From a virus, in IMG/VR virus record IMGVR_UViG_3300032144_000009, positions 1-63,344 of that record: a stretch of 63,344 nt of DNA; one strand, 5' to 3'. Of the stretch, positions 20,967 through 31,265 are shown piece by piece; position 1 is the first letter of the stretch, and each line of letters starts with the position of its first letter. The position numbers and the translations under genes are program-made. Under the pieces are notes generated by a model that had not been told where the DNA came from, did not search any database, and was given only the letters and a program-made list of their open reading frames with translations.

Positions 20967-21983
20967 ATGCAAGTAATTTTGGCGCCAAAGACGGTGCTTG
21001 GTATCGATGCTGCTATCAAGGCGGATCAGGGCGGTGCATACCGCGTCAATCTTGGCAAGGTCATCCCGCACATGGATGACGCGTATCGGGGTCAAGACGA
21101 CGGATTCCGTGCTCACTTGGGTGCCAGCATCGTCGGGCAGGAATGTGCGAGAGCCATCTGGTACGGTTTCAGATGGACCGCGAAAGCTAACTTCGAGGGG
21201 CGCACGCTGCGCCTCTTCAATCGCGGGCACCTGGAAGAAGCACGCTTCATTGCGATGCTGCTCACCATCGGGGTGCAGGTCTACCAGCAAGACGACAAGG
21301 GTAAGCAGTACCGCATCTATCACGCTGGCGGGCACGTAGGCGGCGCAGGTGACGGCATCGCTATCGGTATCCCGGACGTACCTGTCGGCCTGGCGATCCT
21401 GCTCGAGTTCAAGACGCACAACGACGCCAGCTTCAAGAAACTGGCGGGCGACAACTGGAAAGATTACCTCAAGTACCTCGAGAACCCGAAGGCGTTCCGC
21501 AAGCCGGTTGAGTTCAGCGGTGAAGGTGTACGCGAAAGCAAGTTCGAGCATTACGTGCAGATGCAGATGTACATGCGCAAGATGGGTTTGCCTGCCGCAC
21601 TGTACCTCGCTGTCAACAAGAACGACGATTTGCTGTACGGCGAGATCGTGCAGCTCGACACCAGCGTGGCTGACCAGTTCCTGGATCGCGGTCAGAACAT
21701 CGTGTTCCTGAAAGGCCCACCCAAGAAGATCAACGAGTCGGGTTCGTTCTATAAGTGCAAATGGTGTGACCATCACGCTGTCTGTCACGACGGTGCGCAG
21801 CCTCTTGAGAACTGCCGTACCTGCAAGTTCAGTCAACCACAACTGGACGGCTCGTGGTTGTGTACCAGCGAAGACCGTCGCCAGCTGCTGCTCGACCCCA
21901 AGCGAAACCATCTCGGTGAAGACTTCGAGTTGACGAAAGAGCGCCAGCTGATTGGATGCGATCACTATTCGGTGCTCAAATGA
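20967..21983 (+). CDS. PD-(D/E)XK (Cas4/RecB-like) exonuclease with a C-terminal Cys cluster
   Basis: GDGIAIG ... LLEFKT core. C-terminal CKWCDHHAVC...CRTC. Confidence 0.7.
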   Translation: MQVILAPKTVLGIDAAIKADQGGAYRVNLGKVIPHMDDAYRGQDDGFRAHLGASIVGQECARAIWYGFRWTAKANFEGRTLRLFNRGHLEEARFIAMLLTIGVQVYQQDDKGKQYRIYHAGGHVGGAGDGIAIGIPDVPVGLAILLEFKTHNDASFKKLAGDNWKDYLKYLENPKAFRKPVEFSGEGVRESKFEHYVQMQMYMRKMGLPAALYLAVNKNDDLLYGEIVQLDTSVADQFLDRGQNIVFLKGPPKKINESGSFYKCKWCDHHAVCHDGAQPLENCRTCKFSQPQLDGSWLCTSEDRRQLLLDPKRNHLGEDFELTKERQLIGCDHYSVLK

Positions 21984-23737
21984 CCCGTCGCACGCCACGC
22001 CCTTATCAGATCCAGGCTGTCAACTCGATCTTCGATTACTTCGCTGTCAAGGACGGCAACCCGCTTGTCGCAATGCCGACGGGCACGGGTAAGTCAGTCG
22101 TCATCGCTGCGCTGCTCGAAGCGATCTACTGGCACTGGAAGAATCAACGCGTGATGATGCTCACGCACGTGAAGGAGCTCATCCAGCAGAACTATGAGAA
22201 GCTTCTTTCCCAGTGGCCCAGCGCGCCAGTCGGTATCAACAGTGCAGGGCTCGGCAAGCGGGACTTCCACCATCCGATTATCTTCGCGGGCATTGCGTCG
22301 GTCGCAAAGCATTGGGCCAAGTTTGGGCACATTGACCTCATCTTGATCGATGAGGCACATCTTGTTTCGCCCAGCGAAGAAACGATGTACCAGGCCTTCA
22401 TCAGCGGGCTGCGTAGCATCAACCCAAAGCTGAAGGTGATCGGGTTCACTGCCACCCCGTGGCGCCTCGGGCAAGGGCTGATCACCGATGCAGGGTTGTT
22501 CACGGACATCTGCTTTGACATCACTGGTGAAGACGCGTTCAACCGGCTCATTGCGGAAGGGTACCTCTCACCACTCATCCCCAAGCGCACGACCTACATG
22601 CTTGACACGGATGGTGTGCACATGCGTGGCGGTGAGTTCATTCCTGGCGAGCTGCAAAACGCAGTTGACAAGGACGAGATCACTGAGCAAGCGTGCCTCG
22701 AGGCGATCGACAAGGCGAACGACCGGAACCATTGGCTCGTCTTCTGTGCAGGGGTTGAGCACGCTATCCACACTGCACAGATGTTGAACCAGCTCGGTAT
22801 CAGTGCTATTGCCATCCACAGCGAGATGGGTGACAAGGAACGTGACGCTGCAATCCGCGACTGGAAGGCAGGCAAGTACGGTGCAGCGACGAACAACAAC
22901 GTACTGACCACAGGCCTTGACTTTCCTGCCATCGACCTTATCCTGATGCTGCGGCCCACGCAATCGACTGTCCTATGGGTGCAGATGCTCGGTCGGGGCA
23001 CGCGCCCCAGTCCTGAGACCGGTAAGCAGAACTGTCTGGTGCTTGACTTCGCGGGCAACACCAAGCGACTCGGGCAGGTCAACAACCCGCGCATCCCACG
23101 CAAGAAAGGCGAAGCTGCGGGCGACGCTCCGGTCAAGTGCTGCGAGGTATGTGATACGTGGCAGCATGCAGCGCGCACGCACTGTGAGAACTGCGGTGCA
23201 GAGTTCCCGCCGCCCATGACGAAACTGAAGGCACAAGCAAGCACTGATGCGCTGATCAGTGGCGAGCTACCTGTGACCGAGATGTTCAAGGTCGATTACC
23301 TGACATACGCTGAGCACATCAAGCAAGGTGTCCCGCCCATGCTCAAGGTGAGCTATTACTGTGGCTTGAAGTTGTTCACGCGGTACGTCTGTATCGAGCA
23401 CAACAACTTCGCACAGCGCAAGGCGAAGCAATGGTGGCGCGAGCACACAACACAACCGTTCCCCGCTAGCACTGCGGACGCGTTGGAGGTATGCGCCGAC
23501 TATCTTAAGCCCGCGACACACCTGAACGTTTGGACCAACAAGAAGCCTTATCCGGAGATCCTGGCTGAGTGCTTTGACGGGTCTGCGTTCGGCACCATTG
23601 CCCCCACGGACGAAGTGCCCACGATTGACGTGCAGGGCACGCGTGCAGCTATGTCCGTGGAGGAGACTGCGCGCAGGTCTGACCCTGCTAACAGGGTGCC
23701 AGGGTTCGACGACCTGGATGACGACATCCCCTTCTGA
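21980..23737 (+). CDS. SF2 DEAH-box DNA helicase with a Zn finger and an SSB-type acidic C-terminal tip
   Basis: MPTGTGKSV, LIDEAHLV, GFTATPWR and QMLGRGTR motifs, plus CCEVC...CENCG. It ends FDDLDDDIPF*. Confidence 0.85.
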   Translation: MTRRTPRPYQIQAVNSIFDYFAVKDGNPLVAMPTGTGKSVVIAALLEAIYWHWKNQRVMMLTHVKELIQQNYEKLLSQWPSAPVGINSAGLGKRDFHHPIIFAGIASVAKHWAKFGHIDLILIDEAHLVSPSEETMYQAFISGLRSINPKLKVIGFTATPWRLGQGLITDAGLFTDICFDITGEDAFNRLIAEGYLSPLIPKRTTYMLDTDGVHMRGGEFIPGELQNAVDKDEITEQACLEAIDKANDRNHWLVFCAGVEHAIHTAQMLNQLGISAIAIHSEMGDKERDAAIRDWKAGKYGAATNNNVLTTGLDFPAIDLILMLRPTQSTVLWVQMLGRGTRPSPETGKQNCLVLDFAGNTKRLGQVNNPRIPRKKGEAAGDAPVKCCEVCDTWQHAARTHCENCGAEFPPPMTKLKAQASTDALISGELPVTEMFKVDYLTYAEHIKQGVPPMLKVSYYCGLKLFTRYVCIEHNNFAQRKAKQWWREHTTQPFPASTADALEVCADYLKPATHLNVWTNKKPYPEILAECFDGSAFGTIAPTDEVPTIDVQGTRAAMSVEETARRSDPANRVPGFDDLDDDIPF

Positions 23738-23770
23738 AATGTAACTCTTTGTAAGGAAGTGATTTAGTCG

Positions 23771-23799
23771 TTGACACAGTTCAATCAGTCTCCTACAGT
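23771..23799 (+). promoter_or_regulatory. Sigma70-type promoter TTGACA-17-TACAGT
   Basis: Read directly. It lies 47 nt upstream of the ATG at 23846. Confidence 0.6.
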
Positions 23800-23845
23800 A
23801 CAACTCATGCGCAACACGGTGTTGCGCACAAACAGGAGAAACGAA

Positions 23846-24424
23846 ATGAACGCAGCTAACACCACCTTCAAGTCCTACAGCGAAAAGAGCAAGGCCAAGC
23901 GCGCTCTCAAGGGCAAGATGGAAGAGAACATGATCGAAGGTGTCCTGGTGCAGGTCGACGGCAAGTGGGGCTTCTACGTCAACGAAGACGGCACCCCCGC
24001 TGGCAGCAACAACGTGGACCAAGACGGTGTCGAAGTTACCGGCGAGCAAGTCTCCAACGAGACTTCTGTCGAAGATCAGAAGCAAGCAAGCGCATTCGGT
24101 GCTTTCGCACTGGGTCAGCTGACCGGCAACGGTGCAGCGCAAGTCCCGCAATCGGCCAAGACCGAAACCGTGGTTCGCGCTGAAGGTACCGGTCGCGGTA
24201 TCGAAAAGAACCGTCCGACGCAGAACGGTATCACCCGTCCGAGCATCGGTGGCCTCTGCCGCGCAGTGTGGGACGCTTGCGATGTGCTGCGCGCCAACGC
24301 ACCGGACAACGTGGTCACCGCCAAGATGGTCAAGGCCCACGCCGAGACCCAAGGCTGGAACCCGAACAACGCGTCCATCGAGTTCTACCAGTGGCGCAAG
24401 TTCAACGGCATCACCGGCAAGTAA
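23846..24424 (+). CDS. Hypothetical protein P1 with the C-terminal QNG..RP...G.C..W...WRKFNG domain (paralog of 26037-26564)
   Basis: AGGAGA RBS, 192 aa. The C-terminus is QNGITRPSIGGLCRAVWDACD...FYQWRKFNGITGK. Confidence 0.7.
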   Translation: MNAANTTFKSYSEKSKAKRALKGKMEENMIEGVLVQVDGKWGFYVNEDGTPAGSNNVDQDGVEVTGEQVSNETSVEDQKQASAFGAFALGQLTGNGAAQVPQSAKTETVVRAEGTGRGIEKNRPTQNGITRPSIGGLCRAVWDACDVLRANAPDNVVTAKMVKAHAETQGWNPNNASIEFYQWRKFNGITGK

Positions 24425-24459
24425 GCTAAACTTGCAGCCTGCCAGCAACTAACACGGAA

Positions 24460-24477
24460 CGCACCCGCAAGGGTGCG
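24460..24477 (+). terminator. Stem-loop cgcaccc-gcaa-gggtgcg after P1 (no T-run)
   Basis: Read directly. Confidence 0.35.
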
Positions 24478-24484
24478 TCAAATC

Positions 24485-25168
24485 ATGGATCGCACCAAGC
24501 TCCTCGAACGAATCAAGAAGTGCCTGACGATGGCTGAAAACAGCCGGGGTGACAACAGCGCGGAAGCCGCAGTCGCTCTCGGGATGGCACAAAAGCTGAT
24601 GACGAAGTACGGCGTCACAGACGCCGAGATCGGCGCGGTAGGCTTCGGCAACGACTGCGTCCGCGTTCCGATCCAAGTGAACAAGAAGCTCCCGCTGGTG
24701 CTTGTGATCCTGGTGAACCTGATCAAGGAAGCCTTCGGGGTGGAGCCCGTGGTCGAACATGAAGTTCGTGTCAGCGACAAGTCCTACGTCATCCGCTGGT
24801 TCGGGCGCGAAGACCGCGTGATGCTTGCGTGCTACAGCCAGACCGTTGTGCACCGAGCGATGAATGCTGCGTGGGCCAAGCACCTTTCAGAAAAGCCCTA
24901 CCTCCGCAAGGAACGCGGCGCTCGTGCAGGGTTTCAGATCGGCTGGCTCGAAGCGGTGCGTGCGCAAGTGGAGGCCCTTGCTCTCGAAGAAAAAGAAGTG
25001 GCAGCCACTGAGCTTGTCAAGAAGAACCACTACGGCCGGGAGCTCACGAAGACGAAGCGCAATGACATGAAAATCGACCCGTATGCGCAGAATGCAGGCG
25101 CTCAAGCTGGTGCGGACTTCAAGTTGCACCGTCCGATGACCAGCGACCGTCTCAAGATCGAGAAGTAA
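24485..25168 (+). CDS. DUF2786-family protein
   Basis: The N-terminal LLERIKKCLTMAENSRGDNSAEAAVALGMAQKLMTKYGV matches the DUF2786 pattern. A GTG at 24473 is an alternative start. Confidence 0.65.
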   Translation: MDRTKLLERIKKCLTMAENSRGDNSAEAAVALGMAQKLMTKYGVTDAEIGAVGFGNDCVRVPIQVNKKLPLVLVILVNLIKEAFGVEPVVEHEVRVSDKSYVIRWFGREDRVMLACYSQTVVHRAMNAAWAKHLSEKPYLRKERGARAGFQIGWLEAVRAQVEALALEEKEVAATELVKKNHYGRELTKTKRNDMKIDPYAQNAGAQAGADFKLHRPMTSDRLKIEK

Positions 25169-25170
25169 TC

Positions 25171-25950
25171 ATGTACGTCACAATCGATCGCTCGAACCTG
25201 CGCGTCATGCGCAAGCACCAGAACCAGCGTGCGCTCTCTTACCTCACGGTGATCGAAGCGCCCCATGTGGTCACAACCGTCTGTTGCGCGTATGGTGTCA
25301 CGTTCCTCCACGGGTACACCGATCTCGAGAAGCGGAAGCTCTATTGCAACCTGACAGGCGAGAAGACGTGCGTATGGTCTGGTGACCACATCACAGCGGT
25401 TCTCATGGAGCTGGTGCAGCGACTGCCGGAAGACAACATCAACCCTATCGAGGTGCGAGCTCAGGCGAGTCGACTTGCCGATGGGGATGACGAGATCTAC
25501 ATCTACGTCCCCGGCAAGCTGGTCCCACAAGCCGCACCGGATCTTTTTGAGTTTGCGTATCCGAAGGTGGCACGCAGGCTGCATGACGATGAGGTGACCC
25601 TTGCTGCCAACCACAAGGGGATCACGAAGCTGCTGTACCCGGATGCGGAAGAGCAGGAAGCAACAGCCTTGGCCCGCGTACAGGCCGAGATCGCGCAAGC
25701 CGCCACCCATACGGCAGCCCCGACTCGATCGGGCAGCACAGCCGGCACCAGCGCACCGCGTACCGCAGGGGTACGCGACAAAGTGTGGTCGGTTGCTGAC
25801 GCTATGTGGACGGCAGCTGGCAAGCCGACGGATCCGAAGGCGGTGCTTGCACTGCGCAAGGAGATCATGAACACCCTTGAACGGGAGCATGATGTGAAGC
25901 GCACCAGTTCGTCCAATGAGTTGGGCAACTGGCAGAAAAATCGTATCTGA
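25171..25950 (+). CDS. Hypothetical protein P2 with a divergent copy of the P1/P3 C-terminal domain
   Basis: 259 aa. GVRDKVWSVADAMW...NELGNWQK aligns with GLCRAVWDACDVL...EFYQWRK. Confidence 0.65.
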   Translation: MYVTIDRSNLRVMRKHQNQRALSYLTVIEAPHVVTTVCCAYGVTFLHGYTDLEKRKLYCNLTGEKTCVWSGDHITAVLMELVQRLPEDNINPIEVRAQASRLADGDDEIYIYVPGKLVPQAAPDLFEFAYPKVARRLHDDEVTLAANHKGITKLLYPDAEEQEATALARVQAEIAQAATHTAAPTRSGSTAGTSAPRTAGVRDKVWSVADAMWTAAGKPTDPKAVLALRKEIMNTLEREHDVKRTSSSNELGNWQKNRI

Positions 25951-25959
25951 CTTTGCAGT

Positions 25960-25988
25960 TTGCAAGAACCCTCGTTTGCCGCTACAGT
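25960..25988 (+). promoter_or_regulatory. Sigma70-type promoter TTGCAA-17-TACAGT
   Basis: It has the same -10 hexamer and spacer length as the promoter at 23771. It lies 49 nt upstream of the ATG at 26037. Confidence 0.55.
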
Positions 25989-26036
25989 GCAATCACGTCA
26001 ATCAAGACGCTTTTATCAACCACAGGAGTGAACACC

Positions 26037-26564
26037 ATGTCCGAAAAGACCCCCGAACAAGTTGCTGCCGAAAAGGCTGCGAAGGCCGAAGCTGCTGCGG
26101 CTGCCAAGGCAGAGAAGAAGGCTGCGGCTGACGCTGCGAAGGCCGAGAAGGCGAAGGCTGCTGCTGACGCCAAGGAAGCCAAGGCCAAGGCTGCTGCTGA
26201 TGCGAAGGCTGCCAAGGAAGCCGATGCGAAGGCCAAGGCCGATGCGAAGGCCAAGGCCAAGGCCGATGCCGAAGCGGCCAAGCAAGCCTCGCGCATGCCC
26301 GAGCAGAACGGCGTCCGCCGTCCCAAGGCTGACGGTCTGTGCGGCAAGGCCTGGGCCATCTTCGATCAGGTGTCGCAGAAGCGCGGTGCCCCTGCGTCGA
26401 TCGGTGAGTCGATGGAGATCGCCAAGGCCCAGAACCTGAACGAGGCCAACGTGCGCGCCGAGTACGCCCGCTGGCGCAAGTTCAACGGCGTGGTCGGCCG
26501 CGTCGACAACCCGACGGCTGTGAAGCCTGTCGCGCCCGAAGCCAACGCCGGCGCCGCTGCGTAA
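26037..26564 (+). CDS. Hypothetical protein P3: Ala/Lys/Glu/Asp-rich helical region plus the P1-type C-terminal domain
   Basis: AGGAG RBS, 175 aa. AAEKAAKAEAAAAAKAEKKAAADAAKAEKAKAAADAKEAKAK... is followed by QNGVRRPKADGLCGKAWAIFD...YARWRKFNGVVGR. Confidence 0.7.
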   Translation: MSEKTPEQVAAEKAAKAEAAAAAKAEKKAAADAAKAEKAKAAADAKEAKAKAAADAKAAKEADAKAKADAKAKAKADAEAAKQASRMPEQNGVRRPKADGLCGKAWAIFDQVSQKRGAPASIGESMEIAKAQNLNEANVRAEYARWRKFNGVVGRVDNPTAVKPVAPEANAGAAA

Positions 26565-26578
26565 TCCACGCGCAGCAT

Positions 26579-26617
26579 CACACCCCGCTGCGGTAAACTA
26601 ACCGTTTGCGGGGTGTG
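26579..26617 (+). terminator. 10-bp stem cacaccccgc / gcggggtgtg with a 19-nt loop, after P3
   Basis: Read directly. No T-run follows it. Confidence 0.35.
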
Positions 26618-26672
26618 CATTCACCCTGACGGAAACCCCCAGGCCCTGCCTGCAACTTACCCGAGGTGATGA

Positions 26673-27404
26673 GTGATCAATCTCCAACCGATCGAGAAGC
26701 TTTCCAAGAACAATTCTGATCTCGAGGTGCACAGCATCTTTGAGACCATCCAAGGGGAAGGGCCCTTCTGTGGCGTCCCTTGTGTCTTTGTTCGGCTCAG
26801 TGGCTGCAACTTGCAGTGCCCCGCGTGTGATACCGAGTACACCTCCTCGCGCGTGCTGATGAGTCCGAACACGGTTGTCGGTCACGTGGAATCCCTGCGC
26901 CCGAACGGGCTTGTCGTGATCACCGGTGGCGAACCTTTCCGTCAACCTGTTGCCTTGACACGTTTGCTCGAAGAGCTGGTGGGCGCAGGGTACTACGTGC
27001 AGATCGAGACGAACGGCACGCTCCCTGCGCCGAGTCTGGATGAGGTCGAGTACAACACGGACCCAGTGCAGAAGCATGGTGTCTACGTCGTGTGCAGCCC
27101 CAAGACGCATCAAGTGCAGGAATCCGTTCAACAGGTTGCCTTCGCCTATAAGTACGTGATGTCCGCCAGCAGCGTTGACCCTGCGGACGGGCTGCCCGTG
27201 CAGGTGCTTGACCACCCGGTTGTCGGCCGTGTCTGGCGCCCTTACTGGCATGACTTCCAGAACGACACGTTGATCTACCTTCAACCCGCGGAAGCCGGAA
27301 CGCCGTTCATCTCGGAGATGAATCTCACCGCATGCGTCGAGTCGTGCATGAAGCACGGGTACACGCTGCAACTTCAAATCCACAAGCTGATCGGAGTCGC
27401 CTGA
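26673..27404 (+). CDS. queE: 7-carboxy-7-deazaguanine synthase QueE (radical SAM)
   Basis: The GTG start is preceded by GAGGTG. IFETIQGEGPFCGVPCVFVRLSGCNLQCPACDT carries the CxxxCxxC cluster. Confidence 0.9.
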   Translation: MINLQPIEKLSKNNSDLEVHSIFETIQGEGPFCGVPCVFVRLSGCNLQCPACDTEYTSSRVLMSPNTVVGHVESLRPNGLVVITGGEPFRQPVALTRLLEELVGAGYYVQIETNGTLPAPSLDEVEYNTDPVQKHGVYVVCSPKTHQVQESVQQVAFAYKYVMSASSVDPADGLPVQVLDHPVVGRVWRPYWHDFQNDTLIYLQPAEAGTPFISEMNLTACVESCMKHGYTLQLQIHKLIGVA

Positions 27405-28843
27405 TGTGCTCAGTCTTTGGTGCCCTGGTGCATGTCACCACCGCTAGCGGTCTGGCCGAAGCCAACCGGATCCTGAAGACGCTGTACGAACGCAGCCATG
27501 AGCGTGGGCGTGATGGGCGCGGCTGGACACTGCGGTGGCGAGACTACGAAGACAAGATGGACGTCACGTCGCACCGCTCTGTCGAGAGCGCAAGCGACCG
27601 CCATATCGGCAAAGCACCTCACCTGCACGTGCTGACGGAGAGCGCTGTGCTCGTTGGGAACATGCGCGCAGAACCGACGACCGAGTTCATCAAGCGTAAG
27701 GCAGTGCACGACCAGCAACCTTATGATGTCGGTCGCTGGTCGGTTGTGCACAACGGCACGATTGCGAACGACAAGAAGCTGCGCGTGCTTGATGTCCCGC
27801 ACCCGTCTGCTATCGACAGCGCAGTGATCCCTGAGTTGCTTGCACAAGCTGACCGAGATTTCGGTACCAGCAACGCGACCGACCACGGGAAGTTCAAGTC
27901 GGTCGTGTCACAGTTGCGGGGCAGCTACGCAATCCTGGCCGCCACACACGATGTGGATCAGATTCTGGTCGCTTGCAATTACCGTCCGGTGTGGTATATC
28001 GAGACGCCTGTCGGTTTGTTCTTCGGCAGCACGCGTCGTTCGTTCCCAAGCGAGTACACGCCGAAGATGGTTGAACCGTACACGGTCAACCTGTTCCGGT
28101 TCAGTGAAGGGCGCGCCAAGATCAACCGCTTCACAACCAACTACCGTGACCCGAGCTTCGGGGCGCGTGCCCTGGTTGTGTGCAGCGGCGGCCTAGACAG
28201 TGTGGTCAGCGCGACCCAGGCTCAGGCCATGGGGTACCACATCGAACTGATTCACTTCCTGTACGGAAGCCGTGCGGAAGGTCCTGAGGTGAAAGCGGTG
28301 CAAGCGGTCGGTAAGGCGCTCAACTGCAAGGTCACGCTCTTCCCGCTTCCCGTGTACAGCAAGAAGGACTCGCCTCTGCTGGATCCCGACAGCAAGGTGG
28401 CTGGGGGCGAAGCTGGGGCCGAATTTGCCCACGAGTGGGTACCCGCCAGGAACCTGCTGCTTTTGAGCGTTGCAACGGCCTACGCCGAGGCCAACGGGTT
28501 CGAGACGCTTGTGCTGGGCAACAACCTCGAGGAAGCTGGTGCCTACCCTGACAACGAACCGGAGTTCATCGACAAGTTCAACGACCTGCTACCGTTCGCC
28601 GTTGGTGACGGGAAACGCCTGCGCGTTATCATGCCCGTCGGCAACATGATGAAGCACGAGATCGTGAAGCTGGGCCTCCGCAACGGTGCACCCATGCATC
28701 TGACTTGGAGCTGCTACCGTGCGGGTGAGCTCCACTGCGGTACCTGTGGCCCTTGCTTCATGCGTCGCACCGCTTTCGAAATCAACAACGCAACCGAGGT
28801 CATTGAGTATGCCGATCAAGTCGACAAAGACGTTCACGCATGA
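27404..28843 (+). CDS. queC: Gat-QueC fusion: class II glutamine amidotransferase plus 7-cyano-7-deazaguanine synthase
   Basis: It starts MCSVFG (Cys2 nucleophile) and has HNGTIAN. The QueC half has the PP-loop VVCSGGLDS and the Zn cluster SCYRAGELHCGTCGPC. ATGA overlap with queE. Confidence 0.85.
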   Translation: MCSVFGALVHVTTASGLAEANRILKTLYERSHERGRDGRGWTLRWRDYEDKMDVTSHRSVESASDRHIGKAPHLHVLTESAVLVGNMRAEPTTEFIKRKAVHDQQPYDVGRWSVVHNGTIANDKKLRVLDVPHPSAIDSAVIPELLAQADRDFGTSNATDHGKFKSVVSQLRGSYAILAATHDVDQILVACNYRPVWYIETPVGLFFGSTRRSFPSEYTPKMVEPYTVNLFRFSEGRAKINRFTTNYRDPSFGARALVVCSGGLDSVVSATQAQAMGYHIELIHFLYGSRAEGPEVKAVQAVGKALNCKVTLFPLPVYSKKDSPLLDPDSKVAGGEAGAEFAHEWVPARNLLLLSVATAYAEANGFETLVLGNNLEEAGAYPDNEPEFIDKFNDLLPFAVGDGKRLRVIMPVGNMMKHEIVKLGLRNGAPMHLTWSCYRAGELHCGTCGPCFMRRTAFEINNATEVIEYADQVDKDVHA

Positions 28844-29267
28844 GACAGGGTTGTCTTCGTGCTTCCGCCAATGGCGTGCACAGAGCCATTGCAGGCACTT
28901 GCACGGGTACGCTTTGCAAGTGAAGTTCACGTTCGGTTGTGACGCGCTGGATGTGCGCAACTGGTGCGTGGACTTCGGCAGCATGAAGAGCCTCAAGAGC
29001 TGGCTCGAGGATACGTTTGACCACACCCTTCTCGTGGCCGAGGACGATCCGCACAAGGACCTTCTGTGCTCGCTCGCAGGGCTTGATATCTGCCGTGCAG
29101 TAGTTGTGCCTGCAACCGGGTGCGAAGCGTTCGCCAAGCTCATCTTCGAGTGTGCACAGATCTGGTTGAAGGACAACGGGTACGCGCCACGCTGCTGGGT
29201 TCACAGCGTGGAAGTGTCTGAACACGGCGCGAACAGCGCCATCTATGAAACGGAGACAGTGGTATGA
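28809..29267 (+). CDS. queD: 6-carboxy-5,6,7,8-tetrahydropterin synthase QueD
   Basis: MPIKSTKTFTHETGLSSCFRQWRAQSHCRHLHGYALQVKF...DHTLLV. The ATG at 28809 overlaps the gat-queC 3' end. Confidence 0.85.
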   Translation: MPIKSTKTFTHETGLSSCFRQWRAQSHCRHLHGYALQVKFTFGCDALDVRNWCVDFGSMKSLKSWLEDTFDHTLLVAEDDPHKDLLCSLAGLDICRAVVVPATGCEAFAKLIFECAQIWLKDNGYAPRCWVHSVEVSEHGANSAIYETETVV

Positions 29268-29848
29268 GCGAAGGGCGGAAGTTGCATCAGATCGAACTGA
29301 ACGACATCGAGGAAGCAACGCAAATTCTTTTGCGTGCGGTGGAACCGGATTGTGATCGCGAGGGTTTGACTGAAACCCCTGAGCGGGTCTCCAAAGCTTG
29401 GGCATTCTGGACGCAAGGCTACGGCATGCGTGCAGCGGACATCTTGAAGTCGTTCGAGGACGGCGCTAGTGACTACGACCAGATGGTGAGCGTGGTCAAC
29501 ATCCCAATCTACTCGAAGTGCGAACACCACCTCGCTGACATCATCGGCTCCGCAACCATTGCATACATCCCGAACGGCAAGATTGTGGGGTTGAGCAAGC
29601 TGTCGCGCCTTGCGGATATGTACGCGCGGCGCTTGCAAGTGCAGGAGCGCATGACGGTGCAGATCGCAGACGCGCTGGTGGAGCACCTGCAACCCTTGGG
29701 AGTCGGTGTGCTGATCAAGGCGCGCCATATGTGCATGGAGTCGCGTGGCATCTGCCAACAAGGACACCACACGGTGACGACGGCACTCCGCGGTGTCATC
29801 AAGGACGAACCTCAGACTCGTGCCGAGTTCTTGCGATTGGCGCAGTGA
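29264..29848 (+). CDS. folE: GTP cyclohydrolase I FolE
   Basis: GLTETPERVSKAW and the SKCEHHL motif. Confidence 0.9.
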   Translation: MSEGRKLHQIELNDIEEATQILLRAVEPDCDREGLTETPERVSKAWAFWTQGYGMRAADILKSFEDGASDYDQMVSVVNIPIYSKCEHHLADIIGSATIAYIPNGKIVGLSKLSRLADMYARRLQVQERMTVQIADALVEHLQPLGVGVLIKARHMCMESRGICQQGHHTVTTALRGVIKDEPQTRAEFLRLAQ

Positions 29849-30495
29849 CCGGGTAGAATAGCGCTATGCAGATCATAACTTGCAAAGACGCTAGAGCGGT
29901 CGGTTTGAAACATTACTTCACGGGTAAACCTTGCAAACGCGAACATATTGATTTTCGTTATGTCAGTGGCGGATGTGCGGAATGTGCTCGTGAAGATGCA
30001 CGCCGCTATTACAGTGACAATCCCGAAAAGTACAAACAACTCACGGTTCAATACCGCGAACTGAATCGCGGTAAGTGCAATGAGATACAACGTAACTATT
30101 ACGAGCGAAACGCTGCAAAAATCAAAGCAGAAGCGAGCACCTACCGGGGTTTACGAGCGCTTCGCGTTCCTGCATGGTCAGAAACGGAACTTATTGAAGA
30201 GTTCTATGTAAACTGTCCAGAAGGATATGAAGTCGATCACATTCTGCCCCTACAAGGAAAGACGGTTTCAGGTTTGCATGTCTTTGCGAATCTTCAGTAC
30301 TTGCCGAGAAAAGAGAACCGCGCTAAACATAATAAGGTTCTGCTATGAATATCTATATGGCTGCGCTCTATACAAACGGTTATAGACAAGGGCAAAACAG
30401 ATATGTGAAGCTCACGGATCATGAACGCAAATTAGTTCAAGCGGTCCCTGACGTATTGGAATCATGGCATTATGTTGGAAAACAGCGTTATGTCG
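29849..30495 (+). mobile_element. Low-GC patch holding the HNH gene and roughly the first 50 codons of dpdA
   Basis: My hand counts give about 44% GC over the first 120 nt of the HNH gene and about 41% over the first 150 nt of dpdA. The flanking sequence is clearly GC-richer. Confidence 0.45.
29866..30348 (+). CDS. HNH endonuclease (free-standing, homing type)
   Basis: EVDHILPLQGKTVSGLHVFANLQYLPRKENRAKHNK. It is visibly AT-richer than its neighbours. Confidence 0.8.
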   Translation: MQIITCKDARAVGLKHYFTGKPCKREHIDFRYVSGGCAECAREDARRYYSDNPEKYKQLTVQYRELNRGKCNEIQRNYYERNAAKIKAEASTYRGLRALRVPAWSETELIEEFYVNCPEGYEVDHILPLQGKTVSGLHVFANLQYLPRKENRAKHNKVLL

Positions 30496-31265
30496 ACGAG
30501 ATGCGAGCTGACGGAGCATCCATCTTCCTCGACAGCGGTGCCTTCTCCGCGTTCACTCTTGGTGTCGAACTTTCCGTCGCCGAATACTGCGAGTACATCC
30601 ATCGCAACCGTGACATCCTGCGCGTCGAAGACGGGGTCGTTATGGCATCGGTCCTTGACGGAATCGGCGACCCACTCCAGACGTGGCGCAACCAGTACGA
30701 GATGGAGCTGCGCGGCGCCAAGCCGCTCCCGTGCTTCCACGCGGGGGAGGATGAGCGCTATCTTGAGCACTATGTTGCGAACTACGAATACATCACACTC
30801 GGCGGTATGGTGGGTTCCAGTACGAAGCAGCTCTGTATCTGGCTGGATCGTATCTGGGACCGATTTCTCACAGATGGAAGCGGTCGTCCACGACTCAAGG
30901 TGCACGGGTTCGGGATCACGGCCATTCCCATCATGGAACGATATCCGTGGTATTCGTGTGACTCTTCATCGTGGATCCAGTCAGCAGCCTTCGGGTCGAT
31001 TGTCACGCCCCAACACGGTCCTCTCAGTGTATCCACGAAGTCACCCAGTCGACACGATGCTGGCCAGCATGCCACCACGCTGACGCCACTCGAGCAGGAC
31101 TACGTGTTCCGCATGCTCGAGGAACAAGGGTTTACCTACGAACGTCTCTCAACCGTGTACGAGTCCCGTGCAGCGTACAATCTGTGGGCATTCGGCGTCA
31201 TTAACACGATGATGAATGCACAGAATAACGAACGGTTCAAAGCACGAGTACAGGAGCTCTTCTAA
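30345..31265 (+). CDS. dpdA: DpdA, DNA-guanine transglycosylase (TGT superfamily)
   Basis: IFLDSGAFSAF, ITLGGMVG, VHGFGIT and SCDSSSW motifs. It sits next to the preQ0 pathway genes. Confidence 0.8.
   Translation: MNIYMAALYTNGYRQGQNRYVKLTDHERKLVQAVPDVLESWHYVGKQRYVDEMRADGASIFLDSGAFSAFTLGVELSVAEYCEYIHRNRDILRVEDGVVMASVLDGIGDPLQTWRNQYEMELRGAKPLPCFHAGEDERYLEHYVANYEYITLGGMVGSSTKQLCIWLDRIWDRFLTDGSGRPRLKVHGFGITAIPIMERYPWYSCDSSSWIQSAAFGSIVTPQHGPLSVSTKSPSRHDAGQHATTLTPLEQDYVFRMLEEQGFTYERLSTVYESRAAYNLWAFGVINTMMNAQNNERFKARVQELF

Follow-up and report, generated by a model that had tools for sequence, protein, structure and literature searches.

What do three small proteins of no recognized family contribute directly in front of the genes for 7-deazaguanine modification of phage DNA, a process usually described in terms of FolE, QueD, QueE, and QueC plus DpdA? 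The question is raised by a DNA stretch of 63,344 bp (IMG/VR record IMGVR_UViG_3300032144_000009, referred to here as the window), a complete phage contig with distant relatives among Pseudomonas phages (NP1, PaMx25, and JG054), Xanthomonas phage DoCa3, and Variovorax phage VPv62. A first-pass annotation, made from the sequence alone, had delineated three genes, P1, P2, and P3, in a block abutting queE and had regarded their products as paralogous, putative DNA-binding proteins; the open reading frames (ORFs) and translations match that description. The observation was confirmed and its interpretation partly supported, and we found an association with the deazaguanine cassette that is stronger than sequence alone could show: P1, P2, and P3 form a conserved core of the cassette, and the distribution of their shared domain follows that of one clade of DpdA.

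Homology of P1, P2, and P3

The three genes and the parts of their products are located as follows.

23846-24424, + strand: P1, 192 amino acids (aa), ORF; phrog_21588
24200-24421, + strand: shared domain of P1 (residues ~119-192)
25171-25950, + strand: P2, 259 aa; phrog_7864
25171-25710, + strand: N-terminal domain of P2 (residues 1-180)
25747-25947, + strand: divergent shared domain of P2 (residues ~193-259)
26037-26564, + strand: P3, 175 aa; phrog_18634
~26058-26288, + strand: low-complexity N-terminal region of P3, rich in Ala, Lys, Glu, and Asp
26289-26501, + strand: shared domain of P3 (residues 85-155), followed by a short tail

Sequence comparison identifies P1, P2, and P3 as three paralogues with one shared C-terminal domain of ~70 aa, of which P2 carries a divergent copy, as had been proposed. 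For P1 and P3 the relationship is direct: their C-terminal domains are 35% identical over 71 aa (BLASTP; E = 8e-12), the profiles of the two families align with an hhalign probability of 99.5% (E = 1.7e-22), and a domain profile searched against the six-frame translation of the window gave strong matches to P1 (2.6e-35) and P3 (2.3e-34) only. The C terminus of P2 ranked third in that scan (E = 0.09) and was weak, not significant, in direct comparison (BLASTP, 0.03; hhalign, E = 0.009). We count it as a divergent copy because of bridging homologues and the same three predicted helices. ORF 101-781 of Pseudomonas phage PSASB_03 combines the N-terminal domain of P2 (2.9e-13) with a canonical P3-family domain at its C terminus (1.1e-10), Achromobacter phage ART_84 bridges the P2 and P3 families likewise, and in AlphaFold2 models the three C-terminal helices of P2 (residues 201-215, 222-240, and 244-258) match those of the shared domain. 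An 18-nucleotide (nt) stretch common to the P1 and P3 genes, at 24392-24409 and 26472-26489, is identical in every position, with 0 chance matches expected.

The three proteins match separate PHROG profiles (P1, phrog_21588, 3.6e-32; P2, phrog_7864, 2.5e-56; P3, phrog_18634, 1.5e-46), so that this classification splits what is one domain superfamily into several families. None of the three PHROGs, nor phrog_17772 and phrog_11298, bears a function label, and the literature searched yielded no description of a DpdA link, promoters, or leader architecture for these families and no paper characterizing P1, P2, or P3.

Association with the deazaguanine cassette

The neighboring genes to which the trio was compared are listed below.

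21956-23737, + strand: superfamily-2 helicase
24485-25168, + strand: DUF2786 plus DUF7168 protein (Pfam PF10979, 8.6e-14; PF23771, 1.1e-16; phrog_421)
26673-27404 (GTG start), + strand: QueE, first gene of the deazaguanine cassette (Pfam Radical_SAM and Fer4_12; labeled QueE in syntenic phages)
27332-28843, + strand: Gat-QueC, a QueC homologue fused to a glutamine amidotransferase
28719-29267, + strand: QueD
29264-29848, + strand: FolE
30345-31265, + strand: DpdA homologue

The order on the + strand is thus helicase, P1, DUF2786/DUF7168 gene, P2, P3, QueE, Gat-QueC, QueD, FolE, a 160-aa ORF, and DpdA. Eighty loci were recovered from IMG/VR with the domain profile, ~55 of which have the order helicase-P1-P2-P3-QueE-QueC-QueD-FolE-DpdA-clamp-polymerase, and a gene for the domain ends 39 to 130 nt (median, 92) upstream of queE in 47 of the 48 metagenomic loci in which this could be assessed. 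Among cultured phages, the domain is present in 150 records, usually twice per genome. The DpdA of the window, used as a query, found 223 records (in 159 of them the match covers 80% or more of its length, the rest being largely of a distant actinophage type), and the neighboring helicase found 625, about four times the count for the domain. The numbers of records by host genus were as follows.

Escherichia: domain, 41; DpdA, 41; helicase, 60
Pseudomonas: domain, 31; DpdA, 32; helicase, 100
Vibrio: domain, 24; DpdA, 23; helicase, 53
Rhizobium: domain, 13; DpdA, 14; helicase, 19
Salmonella: domain, 3; DpdA, 3; helicase, 51
Klebsiella: domain, 3; DpdA, 3; helicase, 21
Stenotrophomonas: domain, 3; DpdA, 3; helicase, 24

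Because the genus counts agree with those for DpdA and the helicase family is far larger, the distribution of the domain tracks one DpdA clade and not the replication helicase; the co-occurrence with deazaguanine genes that the first-pass annotation had proposed looking for is therefore evident both in these counts and in the position of the domain gene before queE. The alternative that it had offered, an unrelated nucleoid-remodeling set, is disfavored by the same tight co-distribution.

Phages of atypical type conform to the pattern. PSASB_03 (42 kb), RHEph04 (Kleczkowskavirus), vB_Ade_ART (95 kb), and VspDsh_1 all four carry the cassette, with a domain gene directly before queE in PSASB_03, vB_Ade_ART, and VspDsh_1 and a few small ORFs between the two in RHEph04. 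Escherichia coli phage 9g has the order helicase, 9g_10 (P2 type), 9g_09 (P3 type), and queE. A 12-kb region of Septimatrevirus Kopi, comprising helicase, small ORF, clamp, and polymerase genes, has neither que genes nor the domain and shows that a phage can have this order of genes while lacking both the trio and the que genes. A comparison of Kopi with PSASB_03 as a clean insertion or deletion of the cassette was set aside, as the two are too distant (51% identity for the helicase and 26% for the clamp).

The co-occurrence is near perfect within the DpdA clade of proteobacterial phages, and the domain is at most rare in actinophages with dpdA: DpdA was found in 53 Mycobacterium phage records and the domain in at most two, that genus lying outside the domain's ten commonest. 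In Rosebush-type actinophages, such as Ares, Godines, and Calamitous, dpdA adjoins a gene for a ParB-like or helix-turn-helix (HTH) protein instead of the domain. A DNA-binding partner beside dpdA may be a recurring theme that is filled by unrelated proteins. The bacterial DpdA has a ParB-like ATPase partner, DpdB, and DpdB, the ParB-like or HTH genes of mycobacteriophages, and the trio are alike in being putative DNA-binding partners co-inherited with a DNA transglycosylase. Unlike DpdB, the trio has no ParB/Srx-like nuclease or ATPase domain, as judged by Pfam and NCBIfam searches of P1, P2, and P3, and the DpdA of 9g works in E. coli without the trio.

The DUF2786 protein reported within the block does lie there, between P1 and P2, and its ORF exceeds the Pfam gathering thresholds (51.7 bits against 23.9 for DUF2786 and 61.2 against 25.5 for DUF7168). 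Since a homologue occupies this position in only 3 of ~60 syntenic loci (the window, L023, and L048), it is this gene, and not the trio, that is an accessory insertion. Its stop codon lies 2 nt upstream of the P2 start codon, and this spacing suggests that the two genes may be translationally coupled. Farther downstream, the listed Gat-QueC ORF (ATG at 27332) overlaps the 3' end of queE by 73 nt, for which reason the true start probably lies downstream of that ATG. In phage 9g, a Gat-QueC fusion accompanies 2'-deoxyarchaeosine (dG+), not dPreQ0 (PMC6884629), and by analogy the DNA of the window phage probably carries dG+.

Predicted structure of the shared domain and of the N-terminal modules

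In the AlphaFold2 model of P1, the shared domain consists of a beta-hairpin (residues 125-130) and three helices (137-151, 159-169, and 173-186), all at a predicted local distance difference test (pLDDT) score of 92 to 97. Residues N127, G128, P132, G135, C138, W142, A166, N172, N175, E179, W183, R184, K185, and G188 are invariant or nearly so. Within the P1/P3 subfamily, the Cys and two Trp do not vary at all, and conservation of the domain is very strong, at ~70% identity over many clusters. An HTH turn signature, A-x-x-x-G, which ends helix 2 and has a hydrophobic residue next to it, is formed by the near-invariant A166 and, four residues later, G170-W171 in a "GWN" turn; in P3, N or L replaces the Gly of the turn. 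Helix 3 is polar and basic (NNASIEYYQWRKF), a basic N-terminal arm, QNGV+RP, is conserved, and counting the charged residues in the sequences gives the P1 domain a net charge of +4 and the P3 domain one of +6.

The annotation had not recognized the domain as a characterized family, and this was borne out by searches of Pfam, NCBIfam, PDB, PADLOC, and Foldseek libraries. Neither the shared domain (including a Pfam search at E <= 10 over 30 members) nor P1, P2, or P3 had a meaningful Pfam match or an NCBIfam match; no relevant PDB sequence was matched by the proteins or the domain profile, singly or as a profile; and PADLOC held nothing similar to the shared domain. Library matches to Mediator-15, CP12, and TolA were rejected as compositional or due to chance. 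A Foldseek search of PDB with the P1 model returned nothing significant (best E-value, 2.3), the low-ranking matches being mostly HTH proteins (TetR, DosR, MarR, Fur, forkhead, and TFIIIC; probability, 0.1 to 0.16), and a search of BFVD returned uncharacterized phage relatives only.

As no curated library recognizes the domain, we place it in no named family; the models suggest that it is probably HTH-like but not winged. The label "winged-helix-like" given in the first-pass annotation did not hold, since the hairpin precedes helix 1, no strands follow helix 3, and no HTH structure was matched significantly. With tri-helical HTH domains of the homeodomain-like type, or of the Cro/cI-like type with an N-terminal arm, the phage domain has in common three helices in ~60 aa, the A-x-x-x-G pattern, a polar or basic helix 3, a basic arm, and a net positive charge; it differs from them in that the arm is predicted as a beta-hairpin, no wing follows helix 3, and no library match is found. 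The family represents a new, uncharacterized kind of small helical domain, one that probably binds nucleic acid.

The modules N-terminal to the domain are different in each protein. P1, for which 435 homologues were found, is modeled as a small alpha/beta domain (~residues 1-45), a disordered linker, and the shared domain; its mean pLDDT is 76, with both folded domains above 90 and the linker below 50. In some orthologues a SAP- or Rho_N-like motif replaces the N-terminal domain (PF07498 in P0118; SAP in 1 of 136 representatives), and the N-terminal region of P1 in the window has no PF02037 or PF07498 match in Pfam. The N-terminal domain of P2 is well modeled (mean pLDDT of 88.6 for the protein, mostly above 90 for this domain) and is shared by phages of E. 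coli (9g_10 of phage 9g, 1.1e-51), Pseudomonas, and Achromobacter, among which it is conserved; it has no Pfam family and no fold match in PDB (full-length P2 model, none at E < 1). P3, with 39 close homologues found, begins with a long, charged, helix-like spacer of Ala, Lys, and Glu, and imperfect DNA repeats occupy 26076-26288 within its gene. Assignment of this spacer as TolA or histone H1-like (AlgP type) was rejected, since the TolA model scores 21.6 bits against a cutoff of 213 and the likeness is one of composition only.

Among 1.84 billion representative proteins, the domain profile matched 2,142 clusters at E <= 1e-3. Members are mostly 110 to 350 aa long with the domain at the C terminus, and hardly any are fused to a known domain (one to SAP and one to Rho_N). 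Some metagenomic proteins (P0280, P0402, and P0281) have two or three tandem copies of the domain with short linkers between them; this arrangement shows the domain to be an independent unit of folding and function. No copy occurs among 72,556 plasmids, and 185,579 species, each represented by one genome, yielded 14 loci with the domain, several of which are phage contigs binned into metagenome-assembled genomes (MAGs).

Promoters and structured RNA elements

The predicted transcription and RNA elements of the block are as follows.

23771-23799, + strand: P1 promoter, TTGACA-17-TACAGT (consensus scan)
23808-23828, + strand: P1 5' leader hairpin, GCGCAACAC/GUGUUGCGC (-12.8 kcal/mol; z = -2.35)
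24459-24478, + strand: GC-rich stem-loop after P1, 8 bp with a GCAA loop (centroid, -15.8 kcal/mol; z = -1.75)
25960-25988, + strand: P3 promoter, TTGCAA-17-TACAGT (consensus scan)
26579-26617, + strand: stem-loop after P3, terminator-like or a 3' stabilizer (-28.1 kcal/mol; z = -4.0)
26630-26666, + strand: queE leader RNA motif, with the P3 hairpin upstream and the queE GTG (26673) downstream

The near-consensus sigma70 promoters ascribed to P1 and P3 were recovered by our scan. They lie in the intergenic gaps immediately upstream of the two genes and are the only matches to TTG-N20-TACAGT in 63 kb, where 0.22 would be expected. In 33 distinct sequences, P1 orthologues are preceded by TTGCAT or TTGACA, a 17-nt spacer, TATAGT or TACAGT, ~7 nt, and CATG, a promoter pattern with a background density of 0.06 per kb in the same loci. 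In 33 of 38 distinct relatives, a TTGNNN-N16-18-TANNNT sequence of the TTGCA(A/T/C) type is found no more than 70 nt past the P2 stop codon (0.03 expected), and in E. coli phage 9g the P3-type gene is preceded by TTGCAT-17-TATAGT. Both putative sigma70-like promoters therefore keep their positions in dozens of divergent relatives, and this conservation gives good support to the idea that P1 and P3 may be separately and strongly expressed units. The further suggestion that they had been inserted into the operon did not stand, as the trio are conserved members of the cassette.

The predicted start of the P1 transcript is the conserved CATG, and a hairpin follows directly. In the window the ATG of this CATG (23807), although in the P1 frame, lacks a ribosome-binding site (RBS). 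As the stems vary in sequence and length, P1 leaders (L007-L064) were folded one by one and compared with shuffled sequences; 24 of 26 distinct orthologue leaders have a hairpin at the same place (mean z = -3.0), with stems that differ in sequence between phages and loops that are often AACG-like. An operator for P1 at this site is unlikely. Because the putative recognition helix is near-invariant while the stems are wholly different, we read the hairpin as a candidate RNA feature, such as a 5' stabilizer or regulatory site. Rfam gave no match over 23600-26800 at E <= 1.

Of the stem-loops described after P1 and P3, both do fold, that at 26579-26617 strongly and that at 24459-24478 modestly. 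Neither is followed by a U-tract in the window, and the one after P1 overlaps the start region of the next gene and was not listed by a terminator scan. Among distinct relatives, 39 of 40 show strong folding of the spacer between P3 and queE (mean z = -4.1), and a U-tract is present in many of these.

A second structure in this spacer immediately precedes queE. In the window it comprises an outer helix (CGG/CCG), an internal loop (AAACC / CAACUUA), and an inner hairpin (CCCAGGC-CCU-GCCUG), followed by the RBS AGG. Its general form has an asymmetric internal loop, NAAYC on the 5' side and YAACUUA on the 3' side, and an inner hairpin that varies in sequence and length and covaries; the 3' strand of the outer helix is, or abuts, the RBS. 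For 26 of 29 distinct relatives, the fold of minimum free energy has this arrangement of two helices, and compensatory changes are seen in the outer one (CUCCG/CGGAG, CGGG/CCCG, and CCC/GGG); in the window copy the outer helix has 3 bp only and lies outside the minimum-free-energy fold. The motif is present in phage 9g (L101 8210-8260, minus strand) and ~28 IMG/VR loci, and a search of Rfam with 26560-26700, PreQ1-I, -II, and -III included, gave no match at E <= 10. It resembles preQ1 riboswitches in being a small structured leader before a queuosine-pathway gene that is able to mask the RBS and differs from them in its two stacked helices, its asymmetric internal loop, and its lack of a loop pseudoknot. 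We regard it as a candidate translational control element of the que operon, either a riboswitch or a protein-binding site.

Function of the trio and alternative explanations

We suggest, tentatively, that P1, P2, and P3 constitute an abundant trio of nucleic-acid-binding, and likely DNA-binding, proteins that bring their N-terminal modules to the phage genome and play a part in the biology of modified DNA or in regulating the cassette. This proposal, which we consider plausible and short of probable, begins from the trio belonging to the same heritable cassette as queE-queC-queD-folE-dpdA. The shared domain would most likely be the nucleic-acid-binding module that recruits the three N-terminal modules to phage DNA; P1 and P3 would be made abundantly from their own host-type (sigma70) promoters, on transcripts with a hairpin at either end. 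The joint gain and loss of the trio and one DpdA clade makes it probable that the role of the trio concerns deazaguanine-modified DNA or the control of the cassette: it may organize or read modified DNA, permit its transcription or replication, or regulate the que operon. Phage SPO1 offers a parallel in TF1, an abundant HU-family DNA-binding protein that prefers hydroxymethyluracil DNA. The analogy is functional only, consisting in a small, probably highly expressed phage protein, hypermodified DNA, and plausible DNA binding, and the TF1 fold is unrelated.

Several observations weigh against this proposal. Hutinet et al. found that dpdA and gat-queC of 9g alone, expressed in E. coli, gave plasmid dG+ amounting to 9 to 18% of G (PMC6884629). 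These two proteins thus suffice for heavy modification, the trio is not required for insertion and is probably dispensable for the base-exchange chemistry itself, and the idea of a targeting factor needed for modification is not supported. The co-distribution consists of genus counts and ~20 shared accessions from phages many of which share ancestry, and some paralogues lie far from the cassette, such as the P1-type 9g_37. No significant sequence or structure match links the domain to a known DNA-binding family, the Foldseek queries being full-length, two-domain models, which penalize small domains. In about eight bacterial loci (L087-L092, L094, and L095), no que gene lies within 10 kb of the domain. 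Two of these were inspected: in Denitromonas ohlonensis (L092 9722-10195) the domain is accompanied by an integrase, a primase-like gene with DUF3987, an HTH_23 gene, and a putative AbiC, and in a Steroidobacteraceae MAG (L088 9470-10195) its neighbors are an AAA_25 gene and one for a C5 DNA methylase; such loci could be satellites or defective prophages of the same phage group. Finally, Queuovirinae, including 9g and Bas phages, stay sensitive to GrwAB and Dag1, two of the host defenses (GrwAB and Dag1/2) that target deazaguanine DNA, and escape mutations map to dpdA. Simple shielding against GrwAB and Dag1 is for this reason unlikely.

The arrangement of one C-terminal domain joined by flexible linkers to several unrelated N-terminal modules would also be expected if the domain tethered three effectors to a common protein partner, such as DpdA, the sliding clamp, the helicase, or host RNA polymerase. 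The position of the genes between the helicase and the queE...dpdA-clamp-polymerase genes, the lack of a match to known DNA-binding families, and the high identity within the P1/P3 subfamily, which fits a conserved partner surface, are compatible with docking of this kind. We nevertheless think it unlikely, for the domain is basic and has the HTH-like turn signature, proteins with two or three tandem copies better fit multivalent binding of nucleic acid, the copies in bacterial islands have no DpdA, clamp, or helicase of that type nearby, and the partner is still only hypothetical. An HTH-like predicted fold, early-type promoters belonging to the genes themselves, the position of P3 at the head of the que operon, and the proximity of 9g_37 to a divergent early promoter region of 9g would suit sequence-specific regulators of middle or late transcription or of the que-dpdA-polymerase operon. 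GenBank labels reading "transcriptional activator" on PCCM_PaP002, R7M, and SA126VB point the same way, but we found no experimental basis for them; the labels "FtrA" and "plectin" and the TolA-like match suggest that such names reflect the low-complexity Ala/Lys region. All three labels were set aside as probably driven by low complexity, the R7M paper being silent on the point and the iggy paper containing nothing relevant. Moreover, the recognition helix is near-invariant among phages that have entirely different palindromes near the promoter, a common operator is not apparent, and three or four paralogues per genome together with tandem-repeat proteins would be unusual for specific regulators, so that we regard this role as rather improbable.

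The structured leaders, conserved and covarying exactly beside P1 and P3, with conserved loops (AACG-type; AAACC / CAACUUA), raise the further idea that the proteins bind the P1 5' hairpin and the queE leader as regulators of translation or stability, in the manner of the autoregulation of T4 RegA, gp32, and gp43, and many of the conserved residues of the domain are aromatic or basic (YYQWRKF). The queE leader motif, however, occurs in only some phages with P3-queE and is absent from PSASB_03, RHEph04, vB_Ade_ART, and VspDsh_1, a riboswitch and simple stabilizers of mRNA would account for the leaders equally well, and the domain has no similarity to known RNA-binding folds; RNA-binding regulation is in our judgment very unlikely. 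We give an equally small chance to host-takeover or counter-defense factors carried because modified DNA attracts modification-dependent defenses. Co-inheritance with DpdA, variable N-terminal modules with turnover of paralogues, early-type promoters, and the existence of those defenses in hosts all accord with such a role, but the sensitivity of Queuovirinae and the mapping of escape to dpdA rather than to the trio do not, and the shared domain is highly conserved, not fast evolving, and lacks similarity to anything in PADLOC. The proposal of a nucleic-acid-binding trio serving modified DNA or the cassette remains the one that we favor.

Implications for phage DNA modification

The DpdA clade found in Nonagvirus, Seuratvirus, Nipunavirus, Iggyvirus, many vibriophages, and Kleczkowskavirus is almost always accompanied by two to four paralogues of the domain, one of them directly before queE with its own promoter. 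A more specific and bolder possibility, which we consider unlikely, is that the domain binds 7-deazaguanine-modified duplex DNA preferentially, as the first known "reader" of this modification, or that P3 binds the queE leader RNA and couples expression of the cassette to the modification state. Were either the case, the trio would be an unrecognized functional part of the Queuovirinae-type DNA hypermodification module, and a reader would allow the phage to distinguish, organize, or transcribe its own modified genome. The queE leader, absent from Rfam, is a candidate regulatory element independent of the trio and possibly a riboswitch. If the proteins do read, organize, or regulate modified DNA, they would explain how these phages live with a hypermodified genome and could provide tools for the detection of deazaguanine DNA; otherwise, the family still provides a clean genomic marker of the cassette and is a candidate new entry for Pfam.

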